Origin: Candidatus Spongiisociaceae bacterium
GTDB taxonomy: Bacteria; Actinomycetota; Acidimicrobiia; Spongiisociales; Spongiisociaceae
Direction: 5' to 3'
DNA: 64,000 nucleotides
Assembly (NCBI GenBank): GCA_965219685.1
Contig: CBDCOH010000002.1
Location: forward strand, 1,344,001-1,408,000
In this document: positions 31,064-63,848 of the stretch, piece by piece
How the letters are laid out: each line of letters starts with the position of its first letter
Numbering within the stretch: the stretch's first letter is position 1
The notes under the pieces: model-generated
What the model saw: only the letters and a program-made list of their open reading frames with translations
Told to the model about the DNA's origin: nothing
Database searches by the model: none
Position numbers and translations under genes: made by a program

Positions 31064-31072
31064 GTTCAGCAA

Positions 31073-37922: not shown

Positions 37923-37925
37923 TGG

Positions 37926-40887: not shown

Positions 40888-40943
40888 ACCTTTCGGGTAC
40901 CAAGACCCCGGGTAAGAGACATCAACCGACTTGGAGAGAAGGT

Positions 40944-41906: not shown

Positions 41907-42056
41907 TAGCTCTTCGGATTGGTTATCGGGCCCTCTGATCGGTCTAGCGATGCGGGATGTGTAATAGTCGTTGACGACCATCCCCTCAGTGGTCTCACCG
42001 ACGACTTGCCGAAACACTAGGGTGGACGAAGTGCCCTTTGCGACGGAAGGCGAGCC

Positions 42057-42512: not shown

Positions 42513-42515
42513 GCG

Positions 42516-43085: not shown

Positions 43086-43155
43086 GTACTTGATCATCCG
43101 GCAGGTCAAGTAGTTCACATCCTTGAGCGACCGAAATCCGCGTCGGCCCCCCGGC

Positions 43156-44319: not shown

Positions 44320-44350
44320 GCGATCACCGCCGCGGGGCCGGGCTGCAACG

Positions 44351-44716: not shown

Positions 44717-44807
44717 CGGGTCCTCCCTTGCTCGGGCGGGTCCGGAGTGTATCAATCCGGTAGCCCGCCGGCCCGATCATCGCGGGTGAGCCACCCCCCT
44801 ACAATCG

Positions 44808-45257
44808 TTGTGTGCGGTGGTCACGAACGTGCCCATGGGATCGAAGGGCGCCGGTGTGAAGGTATTCGACTTCGATCCGGGCAGGATCCATCTGTTGAGC
44901 TTCAGCCAGGGTGACGACCTGCTGGACTCGTTGACGGCATTCGCCCGATCCAGCGGCATCCTGGCCGCGACCATCACCTTCCTCGGCTCGGTCAGCCGCG
45001 CCGACCTGTCCTGGTACGACCCGGACGCGGGCGACTACCGCACCATCGTCCGGGAGGAGCAGTTGGAGGTTGCGGGTGGAACCGGCAACATCTCTCTGTA
45101 CGAAGGCCAACCGCTGGTGCACATCCACGCGGTCTTCGCTGACTCGACCGGCCGGACGATCGGCGGCCACATCAACCCGGGAACAACTGTGTTCGCTATG
45201 GAGGCCACGGTCCAGCAGTTGGTGGGCGATCCGCCGGAGTTCTGGGGAACCCTATGA
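44808..45257 (+). CDS. DUF296/PPC domain protein
   Basis: GNISLYEGQPLVHIHAVFAD..GRTIGGH. Confidence 0.88.
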   Translation: MCAVVTNVPMGSKGAGVKVFDFDPGRIHLLSFSQGDDLLDSLTAFARSSGILAATITFLGSVSRADLSWYDPDAGDYRTIVREEQLEVAGGTGNISLYEGQPLVHIHAVFADSTGRTIGGHINPGTTVFAMEATVQQLVGDPPEFWGTL

Positions 45258-46530: not shown

Positions 46531-48267
46531 TTAGTTTCCAACTAGGCGCCACTCTCTTGCCAACGTACTGACCAGTATCTTCTGCCGACGTTCTAGAACA
46601 CTCGGCGTCCACTCGGACTCGCTGATAACCTGCGTAGTTAGAGGATAAACGGAGACACCGTTACGTTGGAAGTAGACGGTCTTCTTCCGCTGAAAGGCCC
46701 AGTTCGAGGCACGAGAGTTCTTACGACGTGATAAAATGACAAGATTCGCTAACTTATGGGTCCATTCACACCGTTCTTCTTCGTCGGGGAACCACTCAGT
46801 CCACTCCGAATCCTCCATCGGATTCTGTGGAAGTACGTGCTCCACCGTAACGATCCTACGATCATACGTAGCCCCGGAGTTTGACTCAGCAACAAGACTA
46901 TCTAGACGGAGCAATAGAACGCGCCGGGCGATAGCCACCCATCTGTATACATCACCGTCTAACCGCCGCAGTATTGACTCCTTTTCGGAAGCGCACAACT
47001 GTAGCGGTGAATCAGGATGCGATAAGTCGCTCCCTCCTTCTATAGCATTCAGTAATTGTGCGTAACGCTTGATTCGTGTGTTGACATTCGCCCGGATAAT
47101 GAACAGTCCATAGGCAAGTCTCTCTAGGTCCTTAGCGAATGTGACCACCTGTCTGTAGTCCCCCGCGTTCCGATGGAAGAAGGCCATGGCTGGTGGCATC
47201 CAATCAGAGTTATCAAGTCGCCTCAGATAAGTAAGGTACTTGTTGACCTCTTCCGCATAGTGAGTGCTTTCATAAGAGGCGAAGCGGACCGTTTCATACA
47301 CTCTGGCATACGGGATCAACGTTTCCTTGATAAAACCTTGACCTGTTGAGGTTGTAAGGATGTGGTCTAAGAAGTCAGCCTGAAGCGTCTGTCGCATCTT
47401 CGTCTTCAAGTGTATCATCCGTATATGAGTAAAGAGATCACGAAAGTTGCCTCGGCCCAGTCGTTCTTCAGTATTCTCCCAGTCTTCCCCGTAGGATGCC
47501 TGGTCTGACTCTTGGATTCGCCCGATCGTTTCGGCCTTTAGGATGTCGGTCGGAGATAGGTCGAGTCCACGATCATTCATGACAGAGAAAGTGCGATACG
47601 CGGAATCTCTGTCGGTAGCGGTCACGACCACGAGATAGCAGTGTCGCACGATAAAGGTCGCGAACTTGATCTGCTCAGCATCGGGTAATAGTTCGAGTGT
47701 CCGCACAATTCGATCTACGTTGTCTACTATACGTTCTTGGATGTCGGTAAAGTCAGATCGATCCTCGGCGGCTAACTGTTCAATATTGTCGTTTGCCTGG
47801 ACATAGTTCTCAAAAAAGGGCTGATCACGATCACGAAGGCGTAAGCGGAATTGGTCTGGTATCCCCTTTATAGCACTACCTTTCTGCCTGATGAATTCGT
47901 CAAGCTCTAACTTTCTTTCGCTATTGTCTATAAGACCTCGTAGTACACAAAGGATCATTGTAAGTGTCGTCAAACGCTGTTGGCCGTCCACTACCGCACT
48001 CTTTGGGACTTTCTCTTTTTTAATGAGAACTATACTCCCAAGGAAGTATGGCGCTGTAGGGTCGCGCTTCATAGCGTCTAGGAGGTCATCGAGGAGTTCA
48101 TCAACCTGCTCCGTAGTCCAAGCATACGGACGCTGGTACAGAGGGACGTGAAAGAGATACTGGTCGCCAAACACGGCGACCAGGTTCTTCTCAGCTGCCT
48201 TGATCACCTGAGACGCCGCTACCCCCCGTCCGCTGGCCGATTCGATTGAGGCTAGCAGGCTCTTCAC
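46531..48267 (-). CDS. Second GmrSD-like DUF262-DUF1524 protein
   Basis: PLYQRPYAW, VVDGQQRL, FSVMNDRG, VEHVLPQ, LANLVIL; AT-richer than flanks; true start may be GTG 48207. Confidence 0.9.
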   Translation of the reverse strand: MKSLLASIESASGRGVAASQVIKAAEKNLVAVFGDQYLFHVPLYQRPYAWTTEQVDELLDDLLDAMKRDPTAPYFLGSIVLIKKEKVPKSAVVDGQQRLTTLTMILCVLRGLIDNSERKLELDEFIRQKGSAIKGIPDQFRLRLRDRDQPFFENYVQANDNIEQLAAEDRSDFTDIQERIVDNVDRIVRTLELLPDAEQIKFATFIVRHCYLVVVTATDRDSAYRTFSVMNDRGLDLSPTDILKAETIGRIQESDQASYGEDWENTEERLGRGNFRDLFTHIRMIHLKTKMRQTLQADFLDHILTTSTGQGFIKETLIPYARVYETVRFASYESTHYAEEVNKYLTYLRRLDNSDWMPPAMAFFHRNAGDYRQVVTFAKDLERLAYGLFIIRANVNTRIKRYAQLLNAIEGGSDLSHPDSPLQLCASEKESILRRLDGDVYRWVAIARRVLLLRLDSLVAESNSGATYDRRIVTVEHVLPQNPMEDSEWTEWFPDEEERCEWTHKLANLVILSRRKNSRASNWAFQRKKTVYFQRNGVSVYPLTTQVISESEWTPSVLERRQKILVSTLAREWRLVGN

Positions 48268-49706: not shown

Positions 49707-51431
49707 TCAGAGCATCCGCTGCTGGCCGCGTTCCTCGAGCCGGCTGGCCCCTACGTACACGACGACCGACAGTACGACTATCACAACTGCAGAACCCCAG
49801 GCCCGAGGCATTTCGAGACCGGCATAGGAGATGGCGAAGAGCCACCCGAGTCCGTCGCGGCCGGTGAGGAACTCTCCCAGGATGGCGGCGACGATCGCCA
49901 GGGCCCCGTTCAGCCGAAGGGCGGTGAGCAGGTCGGGCACCGCAGACGGCAACGCCAGGTGGCGCAGCCGGGCATGCCGTCGCGCTCCCATGACCGAGAA
50001 GACATCGTCGGCACCAGGAGGGGTGGAACGGAAACCGGAACTGACCAGAACGAACGTCGGGAACATCGACACCAGGGCGGCCACCGCCACGACGGTCGTC
50101 CGCGTGTAACCGATCACCCTGGCCATGATCGGCACGGTCGCCACCAGCGGCACCGAGTACATGATGATCATCGGCGTGGTAAGCATTCCCTTCAGCACCG
50201 GAGACAGCCAGCCGGCCAGTGCCACTGCCAGCCCGATCAGGCTTCCGACCGCCAAGCCCACCGCAGCCATCTGCAGCGTATTGAACGTGTATTCGAGGTA
50301 GGTACCCGGGTCGGCGGCGATGTCGCTCACCACCGACGAGGGGGTCGGCGCCACTATGGGACTCACCTCCCAAACCGTGACCGCGAACTGCCAGAAGCCG
50401 ATGACGACGACGAACGGCCACACCGTGAGGGCGATGTCGCCCACTCGCCGGCGCCAAGAGGGGGACTCCCCGTGCCCCTCCGTCGATCCGCCGGTACCCG
50501 CCAACTCCCTGACGTCTTGGCGCACCGAGAAGTCACGACGCCGGACCAGTTCCTCTATCAAGGCGAGGAACCCGAAGGCCACGATCGCTATGAACGCGGT
50601 GAGCCCGGCCGCGGCCCACAGCCTGGCCGTGAAGAACTGCTGGAGCGCGACGACCATCACCAGGCCCAGTCCCGGCTCGGTCGTGCCGAACCACTCGCCG
50701 AAAACGACGCCGAACATGGCGGCGGGAGCGCCGAGCTTGGCCGCGTACACGATCGAGGGCAACACCGCCGGCATCTCGAGCCTCCAGAACCGGCCGGTCC
50801 TGGAAGCGCCCAGAACGGTGAACACATCCTGGTGGGACCGGCTCACGAGGTTGAAGCCGGAACTCACCGCGATGAAGCTCGAGAAGAACACCGCCAGGCT
50901 CGCGAAGACCAGCGGGGTCGCGGACGACGAGACCACCATGACGATGAGCGGACCGAGAGCGATCCAGGGAATGGAGTTGACGACGGTGGCAAGGCGACCG
51001 ATTCCCCGCCGGAGCGGGGTGATGAGCAACCCGACGATGGCCAGGGAGACGCCCAGTGCCATTCCGGCGGCGAAGCCTCTCACCGCGTCCCAGATCGTGC
51101 CTATGCCGGCTCGCCAGAGTATCTCCCTGTCATCGGAGAGAGACTTGAGAACATCGGAAAAAGGCGGCCAACCCCTACCGAACGCCTCGGCTTGGCCGAC
51201 CAGTTCCCAGGCGGCGAGGAGGACCGCGACGCCCCCGATCCCCAGAACGGCTGATCGCCAGCCCGATATGTCCTTTGCGGGGATGGCTAGGCGCCCTTCG
51301 ATCGACCGGAGCCGGTGCCGCTCCGGCAGTCCGTACCCGACCACCGTCGACCCGGTCGTGACGATGACAAGGCCACCACCGCTAGTCCTGTGCGGCCGAA
51401 ACCGAACCCTCCGGTTGCCATGTCCGATCAT
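49707..51431 (-). CDS. Fused double ABC permease (two NitT/TauT TM domains)
   Basis: N-half matches 32312-33079 (NSIPWIALGP, GEWFG) and C-half matches 33079-33915; start uncertain. Confidence 0.85.
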   Translation of the reverse strand: MIGHGNRRVRFRPHRTSGGGLVIVTTGSTVVGYGLPERHRLRSIEGRLAIPAKDISGWRSAVLGIGGVAVLLAAWELVGQAEAFGRGWPPFSDVLKSLSDDREILWRAGIGTIWDAVRGFAAGMALGVSLAIVGLLITPLRRGIGRLATVVNSIPWIALGPLIVMVVSSSATPLVFASLAVFFSSFIAVSSGFNLVSRSHQDVFTVLGASRTGRFWRLEMPAVLPSIVYAAKLGAPAAMFGVVFGEWFGTTEPGLGLVMVVALQQFFTARLWAAAGLTAFIAIVAFGFLALIEELVRRRDFSVRQDVRELAGTGGSTEGHGESPSWRRRVGDIALTVWPFVVVIGFWQFAVTVWEVSPIVAPTPSSVVSDIAADPGTYLEYTFNTLQMAAVGLAVGSLIGLAVALAGWLSPVLKGMLTTPMIIMYSVPLVATVPIMARVIGYTRTTVVAVAALVSMFPTFVLVSSGFRSTPPGADDVFSVMGARRHARLRHLALPSAVPDLLTALRLNGALAIVAAILGEFLTGRDGLGWLFAISYAGLEMPRAWGSAVVIVVLSVVVYVGASRLEERGQQRML

Positions 51432-51442
51432 CCCTTCGGGGT

Positions 51443-51605
51443 GTGGTCTGTCTGCGAAACAACGTGGCGTGTTCTGCTTGCCAGGGGCGCCCCTCGCGGC
51501 GTTCCGCTTCCCGAACGTACCACTGCGGGTACGCCTCCGTCAGCGGGCCTTTCAAGGAACACAGCTGCCGGCGCGTACCACACCGCCATTCCGCAGACAG
51601 ACCAC
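51443..51605 (+). mobile_element. MITE/REP-like element, full copy
   Basis: TIRs GTGGTCTGTCTGCG ... CGCAGACAGACCAC followed by TAG. Confidence 0.8.
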
Positions 51606-51716
51606 TAGCTCAGATTCGAGGATGATACCCGCCGGGCCGGTCCGGCAAGCAGGACGGAATCCACGATGTGCCGGTGCGCGCGACTAGCGTTGCAACCCGG
51701 CACCCAAAGGGACGAC

Positions 51717-52367
51717 ATGAGGATTTTCACCGTTCAGGCCACCCTTCGCGACGAGCACCTGGAGAGGTTCGTGACAGCATCGATCGCCAATGCGAGTGCT
51801 TCCGTAACGACCGAGCAAGGATGTCGACGCTTCGACATCTTCCGCGACGACGCGGATGCCGCGAGGGTGGGATTCAACGAGATCTATGACGATGCCCGCG
51901 CAACCGACGCCCATGAGAACTCGGCACATTTCGCGACCTGGTTGTCGGCCACCGACGGGATGCTCGATCAACTGGTGTGGGCGAAGTGCCGCAACCTGTT
52001 CGCCGGGGGAACGCCATCCCAGAGCCGAACCGCCGATCCCTCCTCCACCGGCGGAATCGGCGTCTACCAGGCGCGTCTGTCGCTGCGGGCAGATGACGCC
52101 GACAGCTTCATCGCCTCGGTGACGGAACAGGCCCGCGCCGCGGTGGCAAACGAGCAGGCGCTGCTCCGGTTCGACATCAACCAGAACATCGACGTCTCGA
52201 CCGAAGTCTGGCTCTATAAGGTCCATGCCGACCCCGCGGCCGCAAGAGACCACGCGTCGGCGCCGTACACGGCTGCCCATCTCGACCGGTTCGGCGAGTA
52301 CTACTCGGAAGGGTCGCCCAGCCCTATCTCCGGAACGAACATCTGGCCTCCCGACGCCGGATGGTGA
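51717..52367 (+). CDS. Tandem-domain antibiotic biosynthesis monooxygenase (ABM/LsrG-like) protein
   Basis: EQGCRRFDI..EIY...HENSAHFATW and a second EQALLRFDI..LYKVH...HASAPY. Confidence 0.8.
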   Translation: MRIFTVQATLRDEHLERFVTASIANASASVTTEQGCRRFDIFRDDADAARVGFNEIYDDARATDAHENSAHFATWLSATDGMLDQLVWAKCRNLFAGGTPSQSRTADPSSTGGIGVYQARLSLRADDADSFIASVTEQARAAVANEQALLRFDINQNIDVSTEVWLYKVHADPAAARDHASAPYTAAHLDRFGEYYSEGSPSPISGTNIWPPDAGW

Positions 52368-52437
52368 CCCCACCGGTGTCCTATCCCAGCTGCGATGAGT
52401 GTCCGGTGGTATCGGGCAGGAGAGTGCGGACCCTCGG

Positions 52438-53391
52438 CTAGATGCGCGGGGTGACTTGGAACGAGAAGAGGTCCGAGCGGCTGTAGTGGCCGGCGACATC
52501 CAGATCGAACTTCCCTCTGATGGTGTTCGAAAGGTCGATGTCGGCGAACAGGATCTCCTCGCTTCCATAGTGGGGACCGGCCAGGACTTCGCCGAAGGGA
52601 TCCACGATGCAGCTGCCTCCCCGGGTGATCACCTGGTCGGGATCATCTCCGAAGGCGGAGGCGTAGTCGGTGGGATAGTCGGCACGGGTGGTGTACTGGT
52701 TGGCGGAGAGCACGTAGCAACGGCCCTCCACCGCGATGTGTCGCATCGACGCGGTCCAACTGTCCCTGGCGTCGGCGGTGGGAGCGCACCAGATCTGGAC
52801 ATCCTGCCGGTACAGGGAGTAGCGGAGCAACGGCATGTAGTTCTCCCAGCATATGGCAGCTCCCAGGTTGCCGTGCCTGGTCCGGTGGACCTCCAGCGTG
52901 GACCCGTCGCCGAAGCCCCATATGAGGCGCTCGGACCCCGTCGGCATGACCTTGCGGTGCTTGGCATAGAGGCCCTCGTCGGGTGAGAGGAACAGAACCG
53001 AACAGTACAGGGTGCTCCCGCCCCGCTCGATGACCCCGATCACGATGTCCAGGGCCAGTTCGCGTGCCACCTCCGCAAGCCGGTCGGTCACCGGGCCGGG
53101 CACATCGACCGCCGAGTCCCAGTAGCGGAGGAACATGTCCCGTCCGGCCTCGCTCCTGGACCCGACCACTGCACCGAAGTCGAGACCGCGCGGGTAGGCG
53201 GACAGGAACGCCTCGGGGAACACGACCAGGTCGGCGCCCTCGGACCCGGCCTGCGTGGCCAGATCGATCGCTTTGGCCAGAGTGGCCTCCCGATCGAAAC
53301 CGACCGGCGCCGCCTGCACGACCGCCGCCCTGAACGTCCGCCCCGCCCGGTGCTCAGCCGCGGAGTGCTCGTTAGGATCGGCCATCGACAT
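52438..53391 (-). CDS. Nitrilase (carbon-nitrogen hydrolase)
   Basis: Catalytic triad motifs FPEAF, KHRKVMPT, AICWENY. Confidence 0.93.
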   Translation of the reverse strand: MSMADPNEHSAAEHRAGRTFRAAVVQAAPVGFDREATLAKAIDLATQAGSEGADLVVFPEAFLSAYPRGLDFGAVVGSRSEAGRDMFLRYWDSAVDVPGPVTDRLAEVARELALDIVIGVIERGGSTLYCSVLFLSPDEGLYAKHRKVMPTGSERLIWGFGDGSTLEVHRTRHGNLGAAICWENYMPLLRYSLYRQDVQIWCAPTADARDSWTASMRHIAVEGRCYVLSANQYTTRADYPTDYASAFGDDPDQVITRGGSCIVDPFGEVLAGPHYGSEEILFADIDLSNTIRGKFDLDVAGHYSRSDLFSFQVTPRI

Positions 53392-53457
53392 CGCCGATAG
53401 AGGCTAGTACCGGCAGGGCCTGCCGGAGCAGCCGCCCAGATCTCCCAGGGGGTTCCA

Positions 53458-53895
53458 ATGTCCGTCCGAAGGTTCACAGAAGTCGAGGCCTACCAGCATG
53501 CCGACGACGGCTACTACTACCGCCCGCTGGTCGCCGGGAAGGAGTTGTTCTCCTACGTGGCGCACGTCCCCGCCGGCGGTTACATGCCACCCGACGCGGA
53601 GGAGGCCGAGCTGTTCGAGTTGTCCCTGTTCATGCTGGAGGGAGAACTCGACGGGATACTCGACGAGGACCGGGTTGCCCTCACCGCGGGGGACGCGCTG
53701 CATATTCCGAGAGGCATGCCCTTCGGCGTCGAGAACAGGGGCTCGGCAACGGTCTCTTTCGTGTTGAGCTTCGCTCCCCCGCCTCCCAACGTGGACCTCG
53801 ACACCATGAAGCAGTCGGCCATCGACCGGGGGCGGGTGGTCGTCGAAGCCTCCGACGTCGAGGACGTGGTCGGCCCGGTCAGCTTCCCCCGATAG
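53458..53895 (+). CDS. Cupin domain protein
   Basis: FMLEGEL...LTAGDALHIPRGMPFGVEN; the usual metal His residues are not evident. Confidence 0.8.
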   Translation: MSVRRFTEVEAYQHADDGYYYRPLVAGKELFSYVAHVPAGGYMPPDAEEAELFELSLFMLEGELDGILDEDRVALTAGDALHIPRGMPFGVENRGSATVSFVLSFAPPPPNVDLDTMKQSAIDRGRVVVEASDVEDVVGPVSFPR

Positions 53896-53929
53896 GGTCG
53901 GCGGCTGCTGGCCCGTGGGCGGTGACCCG

Positions 53930-54922
53930 ATGAGCGCCAACCGCTCCTACCGGGAAGAGGATCGTGCTGTCGAGGTCGACGGCGCAACGCTGGCCGGGAC
54001 GCTCGCCCTCCCCACCACGGAGGGCCCGTGGCCCGTGACGCTCCTCCTGGGAGGCACGTTCTCGGATCTGAGGGATGCTGATGTGGATCCCAGGCTGTGG
54101 CCGGGGGTGCCCAGGCGCGGCATGTACGCGATCCTCGCCCGCGGGCTGGCGGAGGCGGGCATCGCCTCGTTCCGCTTCGACCGCAGGGGCGCCGGCGAGA
54201 GTACGGGAGAGTTGGGCGTCGAGCGCGCCCAGGAGGTCGCTGACGCCGGGACCGTGTGGCGATGGGTCAGGTCCCTTCCGGAGTGCAACGGCAGGGCGGC
54301 CATGCTGGGCCACAGCGCCGGCGCCTACGTGCTGTGCCGGGTGGCGCACGAAGTGGGCCAGCCCGACGCGGCGGTGCTCCAAGGCGCCCTGTACCGCACG
54401 ATCGCCGAACTCCTCGAATACAACTACCGCCTGGTACGCGACTACCTGGGCCTCGGGGAATCCGAGGCGGCATGGGTGAGGGAGAACTCCCCGAAGGCCT
54501 ACGAGGATGCGATGATGATGGACACCATCGTGGGGGCGATCGAGAACAGAGAGCCGCAGGCCGTTGCGGAGCTGAAGGGCGATAGGAGAACCCGTGACCT
54601 GTCGAGCCTGCGGTACGACCTGGACCTTCCTCCCGAGGAACAGTTCCGCCACCTGGCCGCCCCCGCCCTCGTGCTGCACGCCTCCGAGGACCTGAACGTC
54701 CCCGTGGAGGACGCCTTCGACACGGTCCGCGCCTTGTGGGCCGCCGGGAACCGGGACGTGGAGTTGAGGGTGGTCCCGGGCGCCAACCACTCGTTCCAAC
54801 TGGACGCCGAGGACTACGCCACCCGGGTGCGGGAGAAGATCACGATGAAGAACTTCGGGCGACCCTTCCATCCCCTCTATCCGAGAGTCGTGATCGACTA
54901 CCTGACAAGAACGCTCCTCTGA
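53930..54922 (+). CDS. Alpha/beta hydrolase
   Basis: LAGTLALP, FDRRGAGES, GHSAG, ASEDLNV, GANHSF. Confidence 0.9.
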   Translation: MSANRSYREEDRAVEVDGATLAGTLALPTTEGPWPVTLLLGGTFSDLRDADVDPRLWPGVPRRGMYAILARGLAEAGIASFRFDRRGAGESTGELGVERAQEVADAGTVWRWVRSLPECNGRAAMLGHSAGAYVLCRVAHEVGQPDAAVLQGALYRTIAELLEYNYRLVRDYLGLGESEAAWVRENSPKAYEDAMMMDTIVGAIENREPQAVAELKGDRRTRDLSSLRYDLDLPPEEQFRHLAAPALVLHASEDLNVPVEDAFDTVRALWAAGNRDVELRVVPGANHSFQLDAEDYATRVREKITMKNFGRPFHPLYPRVVIDYLTRTLL

Positions 54923-55045
54923 TCCTGCCGCAAGGTTCCAATGCTGTCATTGTTCGCTCTGCCCCGACTTTGATCGGGGCTAACCTCGGCGTTGGGGCCT
55001 GTGATCGGCCAGCCGTACACGTCGTGTACCTGTTAGGAGAGTCCG

Positions 55046-56470
55046 ATTAGCTCGCGATCCGTCACCTGCGACCTTCTCATCAGCGGCGGCGTGGTCGTCA
55101 CCGTCGATGACCGGCGTCGCGTGATCGATCCGGGCGTGGTGGCGATAACCGGAGACCGGATCGTCGGGGTCGGGAACCGGCACGACATGCGCCACTACCA
55201 CGCGGACCGGGTGATCGACGCTTCCGGTGCAGCGGTCCTACCCGGGCTCGTGGACACCCACCAGCACCTGTTCCAGTACCTGACCCGCGGTCTGGGCGAA
55301 GGTCTGGAGCTGTGGCCCTGGTTGTCCGACTTCATGTGGCCGGTGACCACCGCCATCTCCCCCGAGGAGGCGAGGATCGGCGCGCAACTCGGGGCTGTCG
55401 AGGCGGCCCGCTCCGGCGTCACCACGATCCTGGACAACCATTACGCCCCCACCGACTTCCAATCCACACTGGCCGTGGCCGACGCCATAGCCGCGGTCGG
55501 ACTGCGCGGTGCGGTTGCCAGGGGCATGACCGGGGAACTGACCGAGATGGCGGCCAAGCACGGCCTGGCCGGCGAGTTGTTCCGCTACTCCAACCAGGAG
55601 GAGCTCGACATCACCCGGGCCTGCATCGAGGCTCGTCCACCCGGCGCCCGCGTCGGCGTCTGGCCGGCCCCCCTCAACATCATCTACGTCGACCAGCAAC
55701 TCGTGGTCGATGCAGTAGGCCTGGCCCGCGAGACAGGCACCGGCTGGCACTCGCACTGCTCGGAGGCAGCGAACGACCCGGTCTTCTACCTGGAGGAATA
55801 CGACCGCAGGCCGGTCGAGTGGCTGGCGGAACAGGGCCTGTTGGACCGGCGAGCCACCCTGGCCCACGGGATCTTCCTGGATGACCGCGAGGTCGAACTG
55901 GTCGGGGACTCGCGGACCGGCATCGCCTACTGCCCCATCTCCCATCAGTACATCGCCTTGGGGGTGATGCGTCTGCGCGACCTCCGCAGGGCCGGCGCCA
56001 CCGTCGGCCTCGGTCTCGACGGGGGAAGCGGGCACCGGCTGGACATGTTCGCCTGCATGAAGCAGGCGGTCCTCCTGCAGCGGGTCCACACGCAGAACCC
56101 CACCGAGTCCAACGGTGAGGAGGCGATAGAGCTGGCCACCAGGGTCGGTGCCGAGTACATGGGGATCGAAGCCGGCGTGATCGCCCCCGGAAAGCTTGCG
56201 GACCTGGTGATCGTGGACCAGTCCGCTCCCCACCACGCGCCACTCCACCGCACGGTGGCATCGGTTGTCTACTCGACCAGTCCCTCCGACGTGACCCACA
56301 CGATCGTGGGGGGCGAGGTCATCTTCGAGAACGGGAGCTGCACCATGGTGGACGAAGCGGCGGTAGTGGAGGAAGCCAACGGACGGGCGGCCGACCTCGT
56401 GTCGCGGGCGGGGCTGACCTCCCTTCTCGAGCCTTGGCGTACAGCCCCGGCGGCTTCGGGCAAGGAGTGA
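55046..56470 (+). CDS. Metal-dependent deaminase/chlorohydrolase (SAH/MTA deaminase-like amidohydrolase)
   Basis: PGLVDTHQH, HSHCSE, LAHG, GKLAD. Homology to the paralogue extends 5' of GTG 55091 to an ATT codon at 55046. Confidence 0.9.
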   Translation: MSSRSVTCDLLISGGVVVTVDDRRRVIDPGVVAITGDRIVGVGNRHDMRHYHADRVIDASGAAVLPGLVDTHQHLFQYLTRGLGEGLELWPWLSDFMWPVTTAISPEEARIGAQLGAVEAARSGVTTILDNHYAPTDFQSTLAVADAIAAVGLRGAVARGMTGELTEMAAKHGLAGELFRYSNQEELDITRACIEARPPGARVGVWPAPLNIIYVDQQLVVDAVGLARETGTGWHSHCSEAANDPVFYLEEYDRRPVEWLAEQGLLDRRATLAHGIFLDDREVELVGDSRTGIAYCPISHQYIALGVMRLRDLRRAGATVGLGLDGGSGHRLDMFACMKQAVLLQRVHTQNPTESNGEEAIELATRVGAEYMGIEAGVIAPGKLADLVIVDQSAPHHAPLHRTVASVVYSTSPSDVTHTIVGGEVIFENGSCTMVDEAAVVEEANGRAADLVSRAGLTSLLEPWRTAPAASGKE

Positions 56471-56560
56471 GACATCGGCTGGAGGATATCCACAGAGTGG
56501 CGGTTGTAAGCGCGTTCCAGGTCTGTTCCGCTTAGCTCACGTTCACGATATGATCTGTCT

Positions 56561-56920
56561 ATGACTACTAAGACAAGATACTACAACGTTACCGGGCGGG
56601 ATTTCCTTACCAAGGCTCGGAGCTACCTAGCCGAGGGAGACCTGCTGCAAGCCTCCGAGAAAGGCTGGGGCGCTGCCGCCCAAATGGTTAAGAGCGTCGC
56701 CGAGGCCCGAGGATGGCCCCACAACGGGCATCACGAACTATGGCGTGTGGCCAACCGCCTCGTGGACGAGACCGGAGACCGGGACATTCGGACCGCATTC
56801 ACTGCTGCCGGCGCCCTGCACACCAACTTCTACGAAGGCTGGTTACCTCGCGAACACGTCGAGGACTGCCTTGCCCAGGTCGAGGAGTTGATCTCGAAGC
56901 TGGAAGCTCTCGCCGCCTAG
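56561..56920 (+). CDS. PaREP1-like (HEPN-related) protein
   Basis: GDLLQASEKGWGAAAQMVK...LHTNFYE. Confidence 0.8.
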   Translation: MTTKTRYYNVTGRDFLTKARSYLAEGDLLQASEKGWGAAAQMVKSVAEARGWPHNGHHELWRVANRLVDETGDRDIRTAFTAAGALHTNFYEGWLPREHVEDCLAQVEELISKLEALAA

Positions 56921-57186
56921 CCGGCGGATGCCGGGTGTCTCGGCTCACGACCTTTCATCCTCGCCCGCCAGGCGCCATCAAGTCGCGAAAAACGCCGAGG
57001 TCCATCCCTGCACAGGGCCCGCCCCCAACCTCCACCTTGCCTGGGCGTGGGCGCGAACCCCTGGTCCGCCACCGTGCAGATGCTCCGCGATCATGTTCCC
57101 TCGGGCGGTCGAGCCGACGTCGAACGCTGGACCGCCGGGTGCTTGGTCAGATACGAGTAAGCGTGCCGGAAGGGTGTGACAGGGTC

Positions 57187-57337
57187 AACCCCCCTGTGCC
57201 TCGGGCTGTGCGCCCGGCTCGAACCCTGGCAGGGTCAAGTACCCTCACAGCCCACTGGTTCTCCGGCTTCAACCAATCTCCTGGGGTTGCCGCCAGGCAG
57301 GCCGGATGCAGAGAGTCGAGGCACGAGCGGGTAGGTT
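57187..57337 (-). ncRNA. Structured RNA candidate, 6S-like rod
   Basis: Nested pairings on minus: GTGCCTCG/CGAGGCAC, CCGGC/GCCGG, CCTGGCGG/CTGCCAGG, ATTGGTT/AACCAGT; motifs GGAG, CTTGAcCC..GGGTTCGAG, GGCAC. Confidence 0.4.
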
Positions 57338-57422
57338 CTGTACGGTTTGTGCCGACCCGGCGGTCTCTCGAAGCCACGGTGGCCAGCGCCGGGAGCAGTC
57401 AGTTGTCTGGAAAGGAAAACCG

Positions 57423-58388
57423 ATGGGCGAGATCGAAGCGACCTGGGACTTTCGCGACCCGTACCTGTGGATGCAGAAGACGGCGCGGAGCGCGTTGCCG
57501 CCTTTGATCATCACCGCGGCCATCAGCGGCGGCGGCCACGGTAAGGAGTCGAACGCGGCCCTGCCGGAGACGCCGGAGGAACAGGCCGCGGAGGCCCGCC
57601 GGGCGTACGAGGCCGGGGCCTCGCAGATCCACGTGCACGTGAGGGACCCGCAGGACTGGAGCCAGTGCAGTGGCAACCGGGAGGACTACGGGCGGGTCAA
57701 CCGGATGATCCGCGAGCAGTGCCCGGACGTGATCATCAACAACAGCACCGGCGGGGGCCCGACGCTAACCACCGAGGAGCGTTATTCGCCCCTGTTCGCC
57801 GATCCGGCGCCCGACGTGGCGACGCTCAATCTCGGACCCTTCGTCTCGCGCTTCACAATGCCCGAGAGGCCCGACCACCTGCCGCATCCACGGGGACCCG
57901 TCGAGTACGACATGTGCAGCGGGACGACCTACGGCGAGCTCAACCACTACGCCTCGGTGATCGCCGAGCGCGGCATGAAACCAGAATTGGAGATCTACGA
58001 CCCCGGCCAGTACTGGGTGCTCCGGGACCTCATCTACAACCAGAACGTGACCCCTCCCTACATGGTCCAGTTCGTCCTGGGCGCGCAGACGGCATCCTTC
58101 CCGACCCCCGCCAACCTCACGTCGCTCATCAGCGAGCTGCCCGCCGGAGCCCTGTTCTCGGTGATCGGGACGGGACCGTTCCAGATCCCGATGAACGTCC
58201 TGGGAATCCTCCTCGGCGGCCACGTGCGAGTGGGGCTGGAGGACAACATCTACTACCGGCGGGGAGAGAAGGCAACCGGTAACGCGCAACTGGTGAGCCG
58301 CATCCGGCGCATCGCCGAGGAGATGAACCGGGAGATCGCCACCCCCGCCCAGGCCCGCCAGATGCTCGACCTCCCGCAGGTCGCATGA
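57423..58388 (+). CDS. Beta-keto acid cleavage enzyme (BKACE/DUF849, Kce-like)
   Basis: IITAAISG, LPETPEE, AGASQIHVHVRD, STGG, KPELEIYD, GGHVRVGLEDN. Confidence 0.93.
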   Translation: MGEIEATWDFRDPYLWMQKTARSALPPLIITAAISGGGHGKESNAALPETPEEQAAEARRAYEAGASQIHVHVRDPQDWSQCSGNREDYGRVNRMIREQCPDVIINNSTGGGPTLTTEERYSPLFADPAPDVATLNLGPFVSRFTMPERPDHLPHPRGPVEYDMCSGTTYGELNHYASVIAERGMKPELEIYDPGQYWVLRDLIYNQNVTPPYMVQFVLGAQTASFPTPANLTSLISELPAGALFSVIGTGPFQIPMNVLGILLGGHVRVGLEDNIYYRRGEKATGNAQLVSRIRRIAEEMNREIATPAQARQMLDLPQVA

Positions 58389-58443
58389 GCGGCCATGGCT
58401 GTCAGGTGAGCACCGAACTCGGCGACGGACCGGGAGGGTCCGG

Positions 58444-59781
58444 GTGGTAGGCGCCGGTCCGCGCCGCCAGGTCCTCAACCTGGGTTCGTTCCCCGTCACC
58501 GATGTCCGGGCAGGCTCCGCCACGGCCCTGGCCGGCGGAGTGCTCACCGTCGACCTCGAGGAACTGGAGAGGATGCTGTCCGACGATCCCAACTTCGCCG
58601 CAGTCTCGGTGAGGATCGTCAGGCCGGGAGACCCGGTTAGGGTCATCAACGCCATCGACGCCGTCGAGCCGCGGATCAAGGTAGACCCCGTGGGCGCTGA
58701 CTTCTCGGGACTGCTCACCACGCCCCGGTTTGTCGGCCTCGGCACGACCCACGCCCTCAAGGGGGTGGCGGTGGTCGAGACCGCCCTTCCGGTGCCGGGA
58801 GAGCCCCGCTACTGGCGTGAGGCGATCTTCGACATGGCCGGACCCACCGCCAAGTACTCCCCCCTTTCCGAGCTTTTCAACGTGGTGGTCTCGTGCGAGC
58901 CCACCCGGGCCCTGCTGGAGAGCAGCGACCGGCCCACCAACGTCTTCGAGGGAACGCCGGAGGCGGTGGAGTACAACAAGGCGGTCCGGCTAGCGGGTCT
59001 CAGGGCGGCAACTTACCTGGCCGAGACAACCCTGGGGATGGAACCCGAGCGGTCGGACACCTACGACCTGGCCCCGTCACCCGCCGACGGCCTGCCGGCC
59101 GTCGTGTATCTGTACCAACTCGCCATCCCGTTCCTGCACGGCGAGATCGCTCCCGGCGCCGGCGCGATCGGCGGAGCGGCCCACCTTCCCACGCCGATCC
59201 ACCCGAACGAACTGCTCGACGGTGCGCTGGTGTGCGGCTGGAACGCCATAGCCTGCATGAGGGAGCTCACCTACACCGTGCAGAACCATCCCATCATCGA
59301 GGATCTGTACGCCCGCCACGGCCACGACATCGACTTCCGCGGCGTCGTGCTGTTCACCAACGGCGACACGCGCGCCGCCAAGGAGCGTTTGGCCAACCAC
59401 GCGGCCAACCTGGCGATCATGATGGGCGCCGAGGGGGCGCTGATCAACTACGCCGGAGGTGGGCATCCCGCCGTCGACGCCATGATGATCTGCAGGAATC
59501 TCGAGCGGCGGGGAGTGACGACCACGATGCTGTCCATGGAGATGGCCGCCAATCCCGGCGAGTCCGGCTTCGTCCACTTCGTCCCGGAGGCCGATGCCAT
59601 CGTGAGCACCGGGAACTACGAGGAGACGGTCCCGTTCGAGCCGGTGGAGCAGGTCATCGGGGGTGACGCGATGATCCAGATCGAAAGCGACCCAGCCGGC
59701 GCGTTCGAAGCCCCATTGGCCATCGTCATGGCCAGCACCCACCAGTTCGGCGGAACACACATACGAGGCGAGGAGTACTGA
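58444..59781 (+). CDS. Glycine/sarcosine/betaine reductase component B proprotein (GrdE-like)
   Basis: DAVEPRIK, GTTHALKGVAV, LPTPIHPNELLDGALV, IACMRELTY.VQNHPII..LY, ADAIVSTGN. Confidence 0.85.
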   Translation: MVGAGPRRQVLNLGSFPVTDVRAGSATALAGGVLTVDLEELERMLSDDPNFAAVSVRIVRPGDPVRVINAIDAVEPRIKVDPVGADFSGLLTTPRFVGLGTTHALKGVAVVETALPVPGEPRYWREAIFDMAGPTAKYSPLSELFNVVVSCEPTRALLESSDRPTNVFEGTPEAVEYNKAVRLAGLRAATYLAETTLGMEPERSDTYDLAPSPADGLPAVVYLYQLAIPFLHGEIAPGAGAIGGAAHLPTPIHPNELLDGALVCGWNAIACMRELTYTVQNHPIIEDLYARHGHDIDFRGVVLFTNGDTRAAKERLANHAANLAIMMGAEGALINYAGGGHPAVDAMMICRNLERRGVTTTMLSMEMAANPGESGFVHFVPEADAIVSTGNYEETVPFEPVEQVIGGDAMIQIESDPAGAFEAPLAIVMASTHQFGGTHIRGEEY

Positions 59782-59790
59782 GGGGTTCCC

Positions 59791-61116
59791 ATGGCCAAGA
59801 TCGTCCACTATCTCAACCAGTTCTTCGGAGGGATGGGCGGCGAGGACCGCGCCGGCACCGGCCCGGTCTCCCAACCCGGTCCGGTGGGAACGGGCCGCGG
59901 ACTGGCCCGTCTCCTGGAGGCCGACCACCGGATCGTGGGGACGGTGATCTGCGGCGACAACTACATGGCACAGGGAGGGGCACCGGCCGTCGACGAGGTG
60001 GTCGAGTTGATTTCCGGGTTCGGTCCGGATGTGGTGGTCGCCGGGCCGGCCTTCGGATCCGGGCGGTACGGCCTGGCCTGCGGTGCGGTCTGCCGGGCGG
60101 TGACCGACCGGCTCGGCATCCCGGCCGTGACGGGGCTCCACGCCGACAGCCCGGGCGCCGCCGAGTGCCGGGCATGGGTTCCGATTCTCGCCACTGCCGA
60201 GACTGCCGCAGGCATGGGTGTCGCGCTCGAGAACCTCGCCCGGCTGGCCATGAAACTCGCACGCGGTGAGGAGTTGGGGAGCGCCGACGAAGAGGGGATT
60301 CTCACCAGGGGCCTTCGCCGCAACAAGTTCGAAGACCTGCGCGGATCGACCAGGGCGATCGAGATGCTGCTCTCCAAGATGCGAGGGGAGCCTTTCAGGA
60401 CGGAGTGGCCACTCCCCCGCTACGAACCTGCGGAACCTTCCGAGCCGATAGAAAGGGGCGCCCCCTTCCGGCTGGCACTGGTAACCGAGGCGGGGATCGT
60501 CCCGGCGGGAAACCCCGACCGGCTGCCATCCGGTTGGGCGACCGACTGGATGACCTACACGATCCACGACCGGGACGGCTTCGCGGAGGGCGAGTTCGAA
60601 TCGGTCCATGGCGGTATCGACACCAGCTTCGCCAACCGTGATCCCGATCGCCAGGTTCCGCTCGATGTGGCCCGATCGATGGAGCAGGAGGGCCGGTTCA
60701 GCCTCCATCCCGAGCTGCTCAGCACAACGGGAAACATGGGCACCCTCCGTGACATGACCCGCATCGGTGCCGAGATGGGACGCGCGTTGATCGCCGACGG
60801 CGTTCAGGCCGCCATCGTCGGTTCCACCTGAGGGACGGGGACGCGTAGCGGGTCTACGCTTGCGAAGTCGATCGAGAACCAGGGCGTTCCGGCCGCCCTG
60901 GTTACGGCGCTGGTACCGCTGGCGGAGTCGGTGGGGGTGCTGCGAATCGTCCAGGGCAAGGCCGTCACCCATCCGTTCGGCGACCCGACCCTCGAGGCCG
61001 CCGACGAACTCACGTATCGCAGGCTGGTGGTCGAGACCGCCATCACCGCTCTGGAAACGAACGTGGCGGAACCCACGGTGTTCGAAGTAGGAGATCGAAC
61101 GGCCGCGGTGGGGTAA
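59791..61116 (+). CDS. grdB: Glycine/sarcosine/betaine reductase selenoprotein B family (Sec at UGA 60829-60831), 441 aa
   Basis: KIVHYLNQFFGGMGGED, AGPAF.SGRYG.AC, ALVTEAGIVP.GNPD, VHGG.D, DPDR.VPLD, TGN. Homology continues in frame past the UGA (GST-U-GTGTRSG.TLAKSIE..GVP...HPFGDP) to TAA 61114-61116. Symbol is family-level; substrate unknown. Confidence 0.9.
60843..60859 (+). promoter_or_regulatory. Bacterial SECIS element
   Basis: 17-nt hairpin GCGTAG-CGGGT-CTACGC starting 11 nt after the UGA, with a G-rich apical loop. Confidence 0.75.
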
Positions 61117-61157
61117 AATGCATAGCTAGCCGTCACTTTTCGGCTGTTTTCGACGGC

Positions 61158-62303
61158 ATGATGTACACAAGCTCACCCAGGCACCACAACGGAGCTTCTT
61201 TCTGCTTGGCGTGAGAGGAGTCGGCAAGAGCACTTGGGCGCGCTCCGTGCTGCCGGACGCATTGCGCCTCGACCTGCTCGACGAGGCGCTGTTCACCGAC
61301 CTGCTGACCGACCCGTCACTATTCGCAAGGCTTATCTCCGGGCGACACAGCGGTCAGTGGGTGGTGGTGGACGAGATACAGCGGATACCGAGCCTGCTCA
61401 ACGAGGTGCACCGCACATCGAGGAGAGCGGTATCCGGTTCGCGCTGCTGGGTTCGAGCGCCCGCAAGCTGAAGACCGCCGGGACCAACCTCCTGGCAGGC
61501 CGAGCCCTGCGCAAGGTGATGTACCCGCTCACCGCTGCCGAACTCGGCGACGACTTCGACCTCGACCAAGTGCTCCAGTACGGCACGATCCCACTCGTCT
61601 GGGTCTCGGATGAGCGCCGCGAGGCGCTCGAGAGCTACACCCAGCTCTACCTGCGGGAGGAGATCAGGGCCGAAGCGGTGGTGCGGAACCTGGCCGGATT
61701 CGTACGGTTCCTGCCAATCGCCGCGCTGATGCACGCCCAACTCGTGAACGCGGCCGGCATCGCACGTGACGCCGGTGTCGCCCGATCCACGGTCAATGGC
61801 TACTTGGAGATCCTGGAGGACACTCTCGTGGCCACCCGGCTACCGGCGTTAGACACCAAGCTTCGGGTACGTGAGCGTCGGCGACCGAAGCTCTACTGGG
61901 TGGATCCCGGCCTGGTAAGGGCCATCAAGCGACGCCTCGGGACGGTGGCCTCTGAGAAACCGGGCCCGCTCTTGGAAGGATGGGTGTTCGGCACCCTCCG
62001 GGCCCACGCCGAACACCACCATCTCTACGACGACATCGCATACTGGGCCCCGGCCCAGTCGCAGACCGAGGTCGTTTCGTCCTCACCCGCGACGGAAGGC
62101 ACCTCGCCATCGAAGTCAAGGCCGCTCGGCGCTACCACACGTCCATGGTCAAAGGCCAGCGGGCCATCGCGGATCTGGCAGGACTGACCCGCCGCATCCT
62201 GGTCTACACCGGCCCGCACACCTTCCGCACGAACGACGGCATCGAGGTCTGGCCTCTCACCACCTTCCATGAAGTCATCGCCGAGGACCGCCTCTGGCCC
62301 TGA
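61158..62303 (+). pseudogene. Frameshifted AAA_14/DUF4143 ATPase
   Basis: GVRGVGKST/VVDEIQR, LLGSSARKL...PKLYWVDPG and AIEVKA lie in different frames (shifts near 61180, 61415 and 62075). Confidence 0.8.
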
Positions 62304-62409
62304 ACCGGACACGCAACTCACCCTGGACCGACACCACCACGTTCACCACACCCACGGCCCCGGCAGCCCCCCAGGGCGCAGGAACATCGCGACGTCAGTG
62401 GTCAGGTGT

Positions 62410-62437
62410 CAACGGACAACGAGCAACGGACAACGGA
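62410..62437. repeat. Heptamer tandem repeat (CAACGGA-like)x4
   Basis: CAACGGA CAACGAG CAACGGA CAACGGA, just past the stop of the minus-strand deaminase. Confidence 0.75.
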
Positions 62438-62444
62438 TCCAGCC

Positions 62445-63848
62445 CTAACGCCTCCAAGGGGTAAGGAGGCCATGCAGGCCGGCCCGGTCGATGAGGTCTT
62501 CGGAGCGGGATTGCGCCTCCTCCATGACCTCGTCCTCGTCGACCATGGTGCAGCGGCCGTTCTCGAGAACGATCCGGCCGTCGATGATGGAGTGGACCAC
62601 GTCAGAGCCCCGGGCACAGTAGGTGAGCGCCGAGACGGTCCGGTGCCAGGGCGTCAGGTGGGGACTCTTCATGTTCACGACGATCAGGTCGGCCAACTTG
62701 CCGGGGGCGATCACTCCGGCCTCGATGTTCGCGTAACGGGCACCCTCCCTCGTCGCCATCTCCAGAGCCTCCTCACCGTTGCTGATGGTCGGCTCCAGGG
62801 TGTGCACGCGTTGCAGGAGGATGGCCTGCTTCATCACCTCGAACATGTCCTGGCGGTGGTTGCAGCACGGTCCGTCGGTACCGAGGCCGATCGGAGCGCC
62901 GGACGCGCGCAGTTCGCGCAGTCTCATCACCCCGAGAGCGATGTACTGGTGGGAGATCGGGCAGTAGGCGATTCCTGTCTCTGTCTCGCCCACATGGTCG
63001 ATCTCGGCGTCATCCAGGTAGATACCGTGGGCGATGGTCGCCTCGGGTCCCAGCAGGCCTTCCTTGTACAGCCACTCGACCGGCCGGATGCCGTACTCCT
63101 CGAGGTAGGTCGGCGGATCCTCCAGACGCTCCGAGCAGTGGGTGTGCCACCCGACCCCGCCCTCGCGGGCCAGCGCCACGCTGCGCCGGACCAGGTCCTG
63201 GTCGTTGTAGATGATGTTGAGCGGCGCCGGCCAGACCTCGACCCGCCCACCGGCCGGGTACTCCTCCATGGCGGTGCGGGTGATCTCCATCTCCTCGTCG
63301 TTGGTGTAGGAGAAGAGTTCCCCGGCGAGGTTGTACCGGCGGGCGATGTCGGTCGCCTCGCCGGTGATCCCCCGCGCCACGGCACCCCGCAACCCCACCT
63401 CTCCGATGGCGCCTGCCACGGCCAGGGTGGTGTCGAGATCCGACGGCGCGTAGTGGAGATCGACAACGGTGGTGGTACCGGCCTTGAGCGCCTCCACCGC
63501 TCCCAGCCTCGCTCCGATCCGGCCTTCCTCCAGGTTGATGGAGATCGAGAACGGCCACATGAAGTCGGTCAGCCAGGTCCACAGCGGCATCCCCTCACCG
63601 AGGCCGCGGGCCAGGCCTTGGAACAGGTGGTTGTGGGTATCGATCAACCCGGGGAGGACGGCGGACCCGGAGCAGTCGATGGTGCGCGCTGCCCGGTATC
63701 CGGCCATGTCCTCGTCGGAGCCGACCGCCACGATGCGGTTGCCCGACACCGCGACGGTTCCCGGATCGATTACCCGGCGCTCGTCGTCGACGGTCACCAC
63801 GGAGCCTCCGGTCAGGAGGAGGTCGCACTCTCGGTTTGTCTCGTTCAT
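62445..63848 (-). CDS. Metal-dependent deaminase/chlorohydrolase, paralogue of 55046-56470
   Basis: PGLIDTHNH, HTHCSE, IAHG, GTDG; VWPAPLNIIY and CPISHQYIALG shared with the paralogue. Confidence 0.92.
   Translation of the reverse strand: MNETNRECDLLLTGGSVVTVDDERRVIDPGTVAVSGNRIVAVGSDEDMAGYRAARTIDCSGSAVLPGLIDTHNHLFQGLARGLGEGMPLWTWLTDFMWPFSISINLEEGRIGARLGAVEALKAGTTTVVDLHYAPSDLDTTLAVAGAIGEVGLRGAVARGITGEATDIARRYNLAGELFSYTNDEEMEITRTAMEEYPAGGRVEVWPAPLNIIYNDQDLVRRSVALAREGGVGWHTHCSERLEDPPTYLEEYGIRPVEWLYKEGLLGPEATIAHGIYLDDAEIDHVGETETGIAYCPISHQYIALGVMRLRELRASGAPIGLGTDGPCCNHRQDMFEVMKQAILLQRVHTLEPTISNGEEALEMATREGARYANIEAGVIAPGKLADLIVVNMKSPHLTPWHRTVSALTYCARGSDVVHSIIDGRIVLENGRCTMVDEDEVMEEAQSRSEDLIDRAGLHGLLTPWRR

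Follow-up and report, generated by a model that had tools for sequence, protein, structure and literature searches.

A gene for a β-keto acid cleavage enzyme recurs beside genes for a divergent, selenocysteine-containing protein B of the glycine reductase type in Acidimicrobiia

We analysed a 64,000-nt stretch of DNA from a Candidatus Spongiisociaceae bacterium (the window), which corresponds to C2:1344001-1408000 of its own genome (G000; two contigs, completeness 96.7%), and coordinates given below without a locus or contig name are those of the whole window. The subject of the present report is a triad of genes at positions 57423-61116, encoding a BKACE (β-keto acid cleavage enzyme), a GrdE-like proprotein and a GrdB-like protein with a predicted Sec (selenocysteine) residue. 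The three genes are co-oriented, with intergenic gaps of 55 and 9 nt, i.e. the tight spacing that had been described in an earlier interpretation of the same DNA from its letters alone (the sequence-only reading). Textbooks treat selenoenzymes of the Grd type as markers of Stickland fermentation, an anaerobic process, and of substrate-level phosphorylation. The triad contains the following features:

57423..58388, plus strand: BKACE (PF05853, 273.5 bits, E 2.4e-81)
58444..59781, plus strand: GrdE-like proprotein, precursor of protein B alpha/beta, 445 amino acids (PF09338, 322.8 bits, E 3.2e-96)
59254-59256, plus strand: Cys271 codon of the GrdE-like gene
59791..61116, plus strand: GrdB-like selenoprotein, 441 amino acids, motif U-G-T-G-T-R-S (PF07355, 391.1 bits, E 6.5e-117)
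60829-60831, plus strand: in-frame TGA, the Sec347 codon of the GrdB-like gene
60842..60864, plus strand: hairpin 11-13 nt 3' of the TGA, at a SECIS-like (selenocysteine insertion sequence-like) position

The start of the BKACE gene was placed at ATG 57423, and not at the beginning of a longer ORF (open reading frame) from 57306, because the orthologues in loci L012 and L097 are 321 amino acids long (L and G numbers denote loci and genomes in our comparison).

We compared 165 GrdB loci, comprising 80 from genome contigs, 80 from metagenome contigs, four from a scan of the class and the window itself. A BKACE gene adjoins the GrdE-GrdB pair in 5/5 loci with a GrdB identity of 76% or more (the window, L012 of genome G201, L097 of genome G182, L105 and L106). 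By tblastn at E up to 1e-8, BKACE was found in none of the 160 other GrdB loci, many of whose contigs are short. Across the five triad loci the identities are 93-98% for BKACE, 82-96% for GrdE and 76-91% for GrdB. G182 belongs to the same family as the genome of the window, and a GrdB homologue (E up to 1e-30) is present in only five of the 201 sampled genomes of the class. The triad arrangement is not due to chance and is a recurring unit, and it is best explained as a catabolic module that is conserved in a small lineage of the Acidimicrobiia. The close relatives of the window's BKACE are found at 94, 90, 82, 81, 72, 71 and 70% identity, followed by a large plateau at approximately 55-60%; contigs of matching size (434624, 22433 and 34857 bp) carry BKACE relatives at 72-82% and GrdB relatives at 59-65% identity, which hints that the linkage reaches deeper. 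We found no paper combining BKACE and GrdB, and the literature searched held nothing describing the window's GrdB branch or a system lacking GrdD. The main text of the NetSyn BKACE preprint contains no Grd or selenoprotein term.

The frame of the GrdB-like gene contains a single in-frame TGA, at residue 347, and is open to position 61116 if this codon is read as Sec (U). The 94 codons 3' of the TGA hold residues that are invariant across 24 homologues (G348, R352, G354 and K359 among others), and U347 aligns with the Sec of 83/83 single-TGA homologues checked. A hairpin occurs at the same site 3' of the TGA in L012, L097, L105, L106, L013 and L111, in a region that also codes for conserved residues. 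Because its folding energy is indistinguishable from that of shuffled sequences (z = -0.62, with 49 of 200 shuffles folding as well), the case for Sec rests on residue conservation. The genome further encodes selD (366.9 bits), selB (322.7 bits against a cut-off of 242.25) and a tRNA-SeC (tca) detected by aragorn. The selD gene, at G000:C2:2564589-2565512, has an in-frame TGA of its own, making selenophosphate synthetase a selenoprotein here. Nearly all database entries of the GrdB-like relatives have been truncated at 346 amino acids by gene callers; annotation pipelines truncate such genes at the Sec codon, and naming them ‘glycine reductase’ carries the risk of misleading metabolic reconstructions of such genomes.

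The GrdB-like protein matches TIGR01918 with 430.4 bits (cut-off 65.45) over residues 3-432 and exceeds the PF07355 cut-off of 22. NCBIfam thus classifies it at the level of the subfamily only. It falls below the specific NCBIfam cut-offs for GrdB (TIGR01917, 415.7 against 602.2 bits), GrdF (430.1 against 800) and GrdH (371.4 against 775); our anchor sequences all lie over their own cut-offs, namely L017, L018 and L088 for GrdB (816, 752 and 631 bits), L025 for GrdF, and L024 and L026 for GrdH. The active-site motif of the window is U-G-T-G-T-R-S, compared with U-G-T-C-T-R-C in 64/64 other canonical rows, and both cysteine residues of the UxxCxxC motif are lost. This motif likely contacts GrdA, according to a 2026 review (PMC13188914). 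Motifs for GrdB and GrdF have been published by Nobu et al. 2022 (PMC9751293) and, as given in the Methods of that paper, the GrdB motif is passed by 61 of 107 sequences, the GrdF motif by four and neither by 42. No row of the window's 28-row clade passes either of these motifs (0/28), compared with 65 of the 79 rows elsewhere in the tree. Measured against the same Methods text, the window's protein misses the GrdB motif with GPAFGSGRYG for GPxF[NF]AGRYG, VHGGIDT for AHGGxD[QTAP], RQVPLD for RV[IL]PxD and TTGNMGTL for TxGNxTxV, and the GrdF motif, in the form stated there, is absent from it.

The phylogenies gave a similar placement. With FastTree (107 rows), the window's protein lies in a starred 10-row clade (support 100) within a starred 21-row clade (99) that includes an orphan gene from Dehalococcoidia (L013) and one from a deltaproteobacterium (L016), and the sister group includes Acidimicrobiia grdE-B-C-A operons. 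A quick IQ-TREE run on 44 rows places the five triad sequences in a clade of their own (starred, 100), whose stem measures 0.68 changes per site and which falls within a 15-row clade (starred, 97) without any GrdB, GrdF or GrdH anchor; the GrdF and GrdH anchors nest within the canonical group. Both trees are unrooted, and support for the deepest split is weak (FastTree 80, IQ-TREE 8). Judged by scores, motifs and trees, the putative protein B of the window is not GrdB, GrdF or GrdH and belongs to a branch without characterised members.

The two orphans have peculiarities of their own. In the deltaproteobacterial pair (L016:8636-9944), GrdE is present as two overlapping ORFs of 209 and 230 amino acids with the cleavage-site segment deleted, and the GrdB motif reads U-G-S-C-S-R-G. 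In the Dehalococcoidia orphan (L013:8821-10188), a 455-amino-acid ORF without a Pfam match lies 5' of the GrdB-like gene and overlaps it, with no recognisable GrdE, and the downstream genes encode an amine-oxidase-like flavoprotein and then two Zn-dependent ADHs (alcohol dehydrogenases).

For the GrdE-like protein, the best NCBIfam match is GrdG, with 224 bits against a cut-off of 780. Cys271 (IACMRE) lies in the column of the canonical SAC-DK cleavage cysteine, which is Cys in 73 of the 81 aligned GrdE rows, and the retention of this residue had rightly been noted in the sequence-only reading. In the two GrdE rows whose partner is a confirmed GrdH, this column is occupied by Ser. The kept Cys271 points to a primary or secondary amine as the likely substrate, not a quaternary one, and the betaine-type (quaternary) substrate considered earlier is accordingly improbable on the grounds of this comparison with the GrdH-paired rows. 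For neither the GrdB-like nor the GrdE-like protein was a solved structure found at E up to 0.01.

The BKACE scores 240.1 bits against the Kce equivalog NF052387, under the cut-off of 382. When aligned to Kce (PDB 2y7d), it has the same residues as Kce at H46, H48, S82, T106, E143, R226, E230 and D231, i.e. the positions HxH, S, T, E, R and E-D; we take these to be the Zn ligands and catalytic residues, both the roles and the native numbering being presumed. The Glu of Kce's ‘GAE’ is Gly in the window's BKACE, which also has a 14-residue insertion relative to Kce. By these positions the BKACE looks catalytically competent. The reaction described for this family in PMC4922564 and PMC9321204 is that of a β-keto acid with acetyl-CoA to give acetoacetate and an acyl-CoA. 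A carnitine-to-betaine pathway was set aside as an assignment: no carnitine dehydrogenase gene is adjacent, and the pyruvoyl cysteine is kept, unlike in the GrdE rows paired with GrdH.

The sequence-only reading had described an operon without GrdA, GrdC or GrdD, which holds for the window but not for the genome, where GrdD alone is missing. A Sec-containing GrdA with an intact C-F-V-U (NF040748, 202.5 bits, cut-off 130) is encoded at C2:1715575-1716015, at a distance of 310 kb from the triad, with GrdC just upstream of it (NF040746, 589.3 bits against 450), and these are the only GrdA and GrdC matches of the genome. G182 and G201 likewise have GrdC-GrdA pairs over the cut-offs at loci separate from the triad, and GrdA is 93-99% identical among the three triad genomes, with C-F-V-U intact. 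The best score for GrdD in the window's own genome is 28 bits (NF040747, cut-off 350), and tblastn with three clostridial GrdD sequences, which found GrdD in 51 canonical loci, gave there only a 24%-identical match of ~240 amino acids, presumably PlsX. In each of the three triad genomes, a full-length match to PF07355 or P0001 was found for the triad GrdB alone, the sole other PF07355 match being a PrdB-like fragment match, and the genome of the window has one PF09338 gene only. The PrdB-like protein is itself a selenoprotein of 307 amino acids with its TGA in U-P-V-C (G000:C2:2667000-2667960; L007:9036-9959, minus strand), whose gene adjoins menB and lies upstream of hspR-dnaJ-grpE; this partial PF07355 match is also present in G182 and G201.

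The grdC-grdA locus (L006) is syntenic with the EamA-grdE-grdB-grdC-grdA...ADH operons of three genomes of the same order, minus grdE-grdB, with identities of 51-55% for EamA, 69-74% for GrdC, 82-85% for GrdA and 51-68% for the ADH; the GrdB proteins of those operons are only 40-44% identical to the window's GrdB-like protein. By its gene order and these identities, the locus is a predicted orthologous remnant of an EamA-grdE-grdB-grdC-grdA operon. A 141-amino-acid clan-AA aspartic-protease-like ORF lies between grdC and grdA in G000 (L006:10227-10652) and in G201 (89% identical), and is absent from the 180-nt grdC-grdA gap of G182. Elsewhere, a metagenome relative with the UGTGTRS motif (L111) has grdB-grdC-grdA contiguous, and GrdA is present in 7/8 genomes with a non-canonical GrdB; one genome (G573) has six full-length GrdB paralogues and one GrdA, and another (G572) has an orphan GrdB-like gene plus a second GrdB adjoining GrdA. 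GrdD-less grdE-B-C-A arrangements are common in Acidimicrobiia, deltaproteobacterial, soil or sediment loci. GrdC without an adjacent GrdD shows six class-specific residues in 18 of 21 rows, replacing those shared by 62 GrdD-linked rows, and by this pattern the GrdD-less GrdC is a distinct subtype. A scan for WC[GAP]PC, which we take to be the thioredoxin motif, detected no such ORF in the window, as the sequence-only reading had stated for thioredoxin genes, or in the grdC-grdA locus, and by the same motif scan one thioredoxin-like ORF lies elsewhere, near C2:3470675. The host genome encodes a heme-copper oxidase (COX1), by which it can respire aerobically, in keeping with the aerobic-type setting that had been suggested; because of this oxidase we do not consider the system to be classical Stickland fermentation.

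We propose, with a probability of roughly 0.55, that the triad GrdE and GrdB are a new substrate-specific protein B that delivers to a distal, shared GrdA and GrdC. For this we count the recurrence of the triad, the pyruvoyl cysteine, the BKACE catalytic positions, the linkage in L111, the synteny of the grdC-grdA locus with complete operons, the GrdD-less subtype of GrdC, and the presence of selD, selB and tRNA-Sec. Since the triad GrdB is the only full-length protein B in three genomes, its use of GrdA and GrdC is the simplest reading, and it is taken to deliver to them because both are conserved without another protein B and because sharing of GrdA is the rule in this family. In addition, as there is no resolving cysteine beside the Sec, release of the adduct would plausibly need the CxxU of GrdA. 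The combination of findings by which the sequence-only reading had proposed to refute itself (a full grdACD set, nesting among GrdB, GrdF and GrdH, and a lack of BKACE linkage) does not occur: no GrdD was found in the genome, the trees do not nest the protein in this way, and the BKACE linkage recurs.

In the mechanism that we envisage, the GrdE-like and GrdB-like proteins would form a divergent pyruvoyl protein B binding a primary or secondary amine, the Sec of which would cleave a C-N bond next to a carbonyl in a substrate other than glycine, sarcosine or betaine as such. Protein B would then pass a C2 unit bound to Se, or something related, to the single GrdA (CxxU) and GrdC of the genome, its presumed partners. 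With GrdD absent, a thioester (likely acetyl-CoA), and not acetyl phosphate, is the probable form in which the activated acetyl unit is released. The BKACE may make the amine substrate, i.e. convert a γ-amino-β-keto acid and acetyl-CoA into acetoacetate and an aminoacetyl-type CoA ester; instead of this, or besides it, the enzyme may use up acetyl-CoA regenerated by the reductase. It is conceivable, but in our estimation improbable, that BKACE and selenoenzyme form a loop catalytic in CoA, in which the aminoacetyl-CoA (or acid) is reductively deaminated back to acetyl-CoA via GrdA and the GrdD-less GrdC. If such a loop were true, an aerobe would remove the amine from a β-keto acid without net use of CoA or ATP, and Grd chemistry would yield acetyl-CoA, not acetyl phosphate, i.e. 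a new Grd output and a Sec-dependent reductive deamination outside fermentation.

Several observations weigh against a protein B that delivers to GrdA and GrdC. Both of these are encoded 310 kb from the triad; their co-occurrence with it rests on three related, non-independent genomes; and the loss of both UxxCxxC cysteine residues might just as well reflect a protein no longer coupled to GrdA. In other Actinomycetota, BKACE relatives with 55-59% identity have unrelated neighbourhoods that lack Grd genes (amine-oxidase-like flavoproteins, thiolase/DUF35, enoyl-CoA hydratase, NMO, TetR and acetone carboxylase), from which no substrate could be transferred. The neighbours of the triad (deaminase-type amidohydrolases, a cupin, an α/β hydrolase and an ABM protein) give no clear lead to the substrate either, and no riboswitch was found, a search of 51000-62500 against Rfam having given no match at E up to 1.

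The triad could instead encode a self-contained reductase resembling PrdA/PrdB, working without GrdA and GrdC, with the Se-adduct freed by an external thiol or another cysteine and with GrdA and GrdC serving otherwise or being relics. This is a possibility that we take seriously and still judge unlikely. It would account for the fact that grdA and grdC never adjoin the triad in the five loci (12-21 kb each), for the loss of both cysteine residues that the review cited above (PMC13188914) describes as contacting GrdA, and for a Planctomycetota chromosome (G574) that has a non-canonical GrdB without a GrdA match. The protein of G574, however, is from a different sub-branch and also lacks the pyruvoyl cysteine. 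A self-contained enzyme would further have no resolving cysteine near its Sec, 3/3 triad genomes have an intact, highly conserved GrdA and GrdC but no other protein B, and L111 joins the UGTGTRS motif type directly to grdC-grdA.

The remaining alternatives fare less well. An ordinary glycine or sarcosine reductase split over two loci, with the BKACE adjacency functionally meaningless, would fit the full-length TIGR01918 match, the top specific models (GrdF at 430 and GrdB at 416 bits) and the presence of GrdA, GrdC and the pyruvoyl cysteine. We nevertheless think this quite improbable: the scores are far under the cut-offs of 602, 800 and 775 that the anchors pass, the window fails four GrdB motif elements and the GrdF motif in the versions of the Methods cited above, as do 28/28 rows of its clade for the motifs as wholes, the triad clade stands on its 0.68 stem inside a starred clade free of anchors, and the BKACE linkage is conserved, with BKACE better conserved than GrdB. 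That the locus is a decaying remnant, in which the TGA truly ends translation and the GrdB-like gene is a shortened pseudogene, is hardly credible. The ends that gene callers set at 346 amino acids in nearly all database entries and the hairpin no more stable than shuffles would agree with it, but the 94 further open codons with invariant residues, the coincidence of the TGA with the Sec position of the family, and the selD, selB and tRNA-Sec of the genome would not.

Around the triad, whose GrdE and GrdB we thus prefer to read as a protein B with distal partners, we found the following features:

53458-53895, plus strand: Cupin_2 protein, conserved upstream in the window, L012 and L097
53915-54922, plus strand: α/β hydrolase, conserved upstream in the window, L012 and L097
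55091..56470, plus strand: Amidohydrolase_1 (TRZ/ATZ / 8-oxoguanine-deaminase-like; Pfam and NCBIfam matches), conserved upstream neighbour
56561..56920, plus strand: PaREP1-family gene (PF05942), variable element between the amidohydrolase and BKACE
61211..62187, plus strand: AAA_14/DUF4143 ATPase over two frames, probable pseudogene, variable flank
62445..63848, minus strand: a further amidohydrolase_1 of this subgroup, conserved on the downstream side, with orthologues in L012 and L106

An amidohydrolase gene lies 5' of the triad in all four loci that have upstream DNA, adjoining BKACE directly in L097 and L105, with PaREP1 genes intervening in the window and L012. The cupin and α/β hydrolase genes are found 5' of the triad in three of these four loci and were not detected by tblastn in L105. 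The downstream amidohydrolase copy of L106 is 90% identical to that of the window. A creatinine-to-sarcosine pathway, suggested by the deaminase-type amidohydrolases and a CN-hydrolase, is kept as a lead only and leaves BKACE without a role. Genes of the ‘archaeal’ PaREP1/PaREP8 family occur at differing places around the triad (window 56561-56920; L012:5812-6735, two copies; L097:10774-11139, where the copy is 3' of GrdB), and behave like small mobile or toxin-antitoxin-like insertions. The AAA_14 part of the split ATPase gene is in the frame of 61211-61471 and the DUF4143 part in that of 61234-62187; an intact orthologue of 382 amino acids is present at L012:11074-12222, the window itself has an intact paralogue (9951-11291, minus strand), and the split gene is a probable frameshift pseudogene. 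No sigma-70-like promoter site was found, and the seven terminator-like sites (3.4 +/- 2.2 in shuffles) included none that was informatively placed.

Further away in the window, the stretch 27619-45257 holds five Amidohydro_2 genes, in which the window is exceptionally rich, a PhyH dioxygenase, an enolase-superfamily dehydratase, parts of an NMT1-type ABC transporter and a two-subunit ADP-forming CoA ligase, a gene set that suggests a large catabolic island. The PhyH gene, pointed out in the sequence-only reading, is at 30191-31123, 26 kb from the triad. The same reading had tentatively drawn a 3-hydroxyacyl-CoA dehydrogenase (17 kb off) and the ADP-forming ligase (28 kb off) into the pathway; we found no link for either, and both are outside the block conserved in L012, L097 and L105. 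Defence-type genes occupy stretches of lower G+C content at 6551-24231 and 46531-48267, and include a type I restriction-modification HsdM (6551-8656), an HsdR-like gene whose tail is of the Schlafen/AlbA_2 type (13411-16944), a pair of GmrSD endonucleases (17542-19215 and 46531-48267, minus strand) and an ORF of 1518 amino acids without a Pfam match (19675-24231).

The triad departs from the textbook picture of Grd systems in the loss of the hallmark cysteine residues, in being tied to a CoA-dependent enzyme of C-C cleavage, in its presumed use of a GrdA/GrdC set without the acetyl-phosphate-forming GrdD, and in an Acidimicrobiia host with a heme-copper oxidase. If active, the module would extend the selenium-dependent reduction of C-N bonds to further substrates and to another physiological setting, and the three genes together with grdA and grdC are a defined target in which a new substrate of BKACE and a new reaction of the reductase could be found.

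Among known systems, glycine reductase (protein B of GrdB and GrdE, with GrdA and GrdC/GrdD), for which we take Peptoclostridium acidaminophilum and Acetoanaerobium sticklandii to be the reference organisms, shares with the triad both Pfam families at full length, the homologous Sec position and the GrdE cleavage cysteine and, at the level of the genome, a Sec-GrdA (CxxU) and a GrdC. The window differs from it in having UxxGxxS for UxxCxxC, in falling under the GrdB equivalog cut-off and failing the GrdB motif as printed in the Methods of its source paper, in the lack of a detected GrdD, in the distance of 310 kb to grdA and grdC, in an operon with BKACE, and in the heme-copper oxidase of the host. 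The sarcosine (GrdF/GrdG) and betaine (GrdH/GrdI) systems are alternative substrate-specific protein B modules that in clostridia share one GrdA with GrdB/GrdE, which is the logic that we propose for the triad; their GrdF and GrdH anchors lie inside the canonical clade and keep UxxCxxC, whereas the window reaches 430 of 800 and 371 of 775 bits, and the GrdE rows paired with GrdH have Ser where the GrdE-like protein of the window has Cys.

D-Proline reductase (PrdA/PrdB), in which a pyruvoyl subunit and a Sec subunit work with no need for GrdA, is the model for a self-contained triad enzyme, to which it shows weak, partial homology (58 bits against 300 for PrdB and 29 against 700 for PrdA); the genome has its own separate PrdB-like UxxC selenoprotein (L007:9036-9959). 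Kce (PDB 2y7d) and the BKACE of the carnitine pathway share the fold family and the aligned catalytic positions with the window's BKACE, next to which there is no lysine-fermentation or carnitine dehydrogenase gene. The fluoroacetate reductase of Synergistota (FarE etc.) belongs to an unrelated branch, the window scoring 134 bits against a cut-off of 675, and provides, according to PMC10838667, a precedent for Grd-type machinery acting on a substrate that is not an amino acid.

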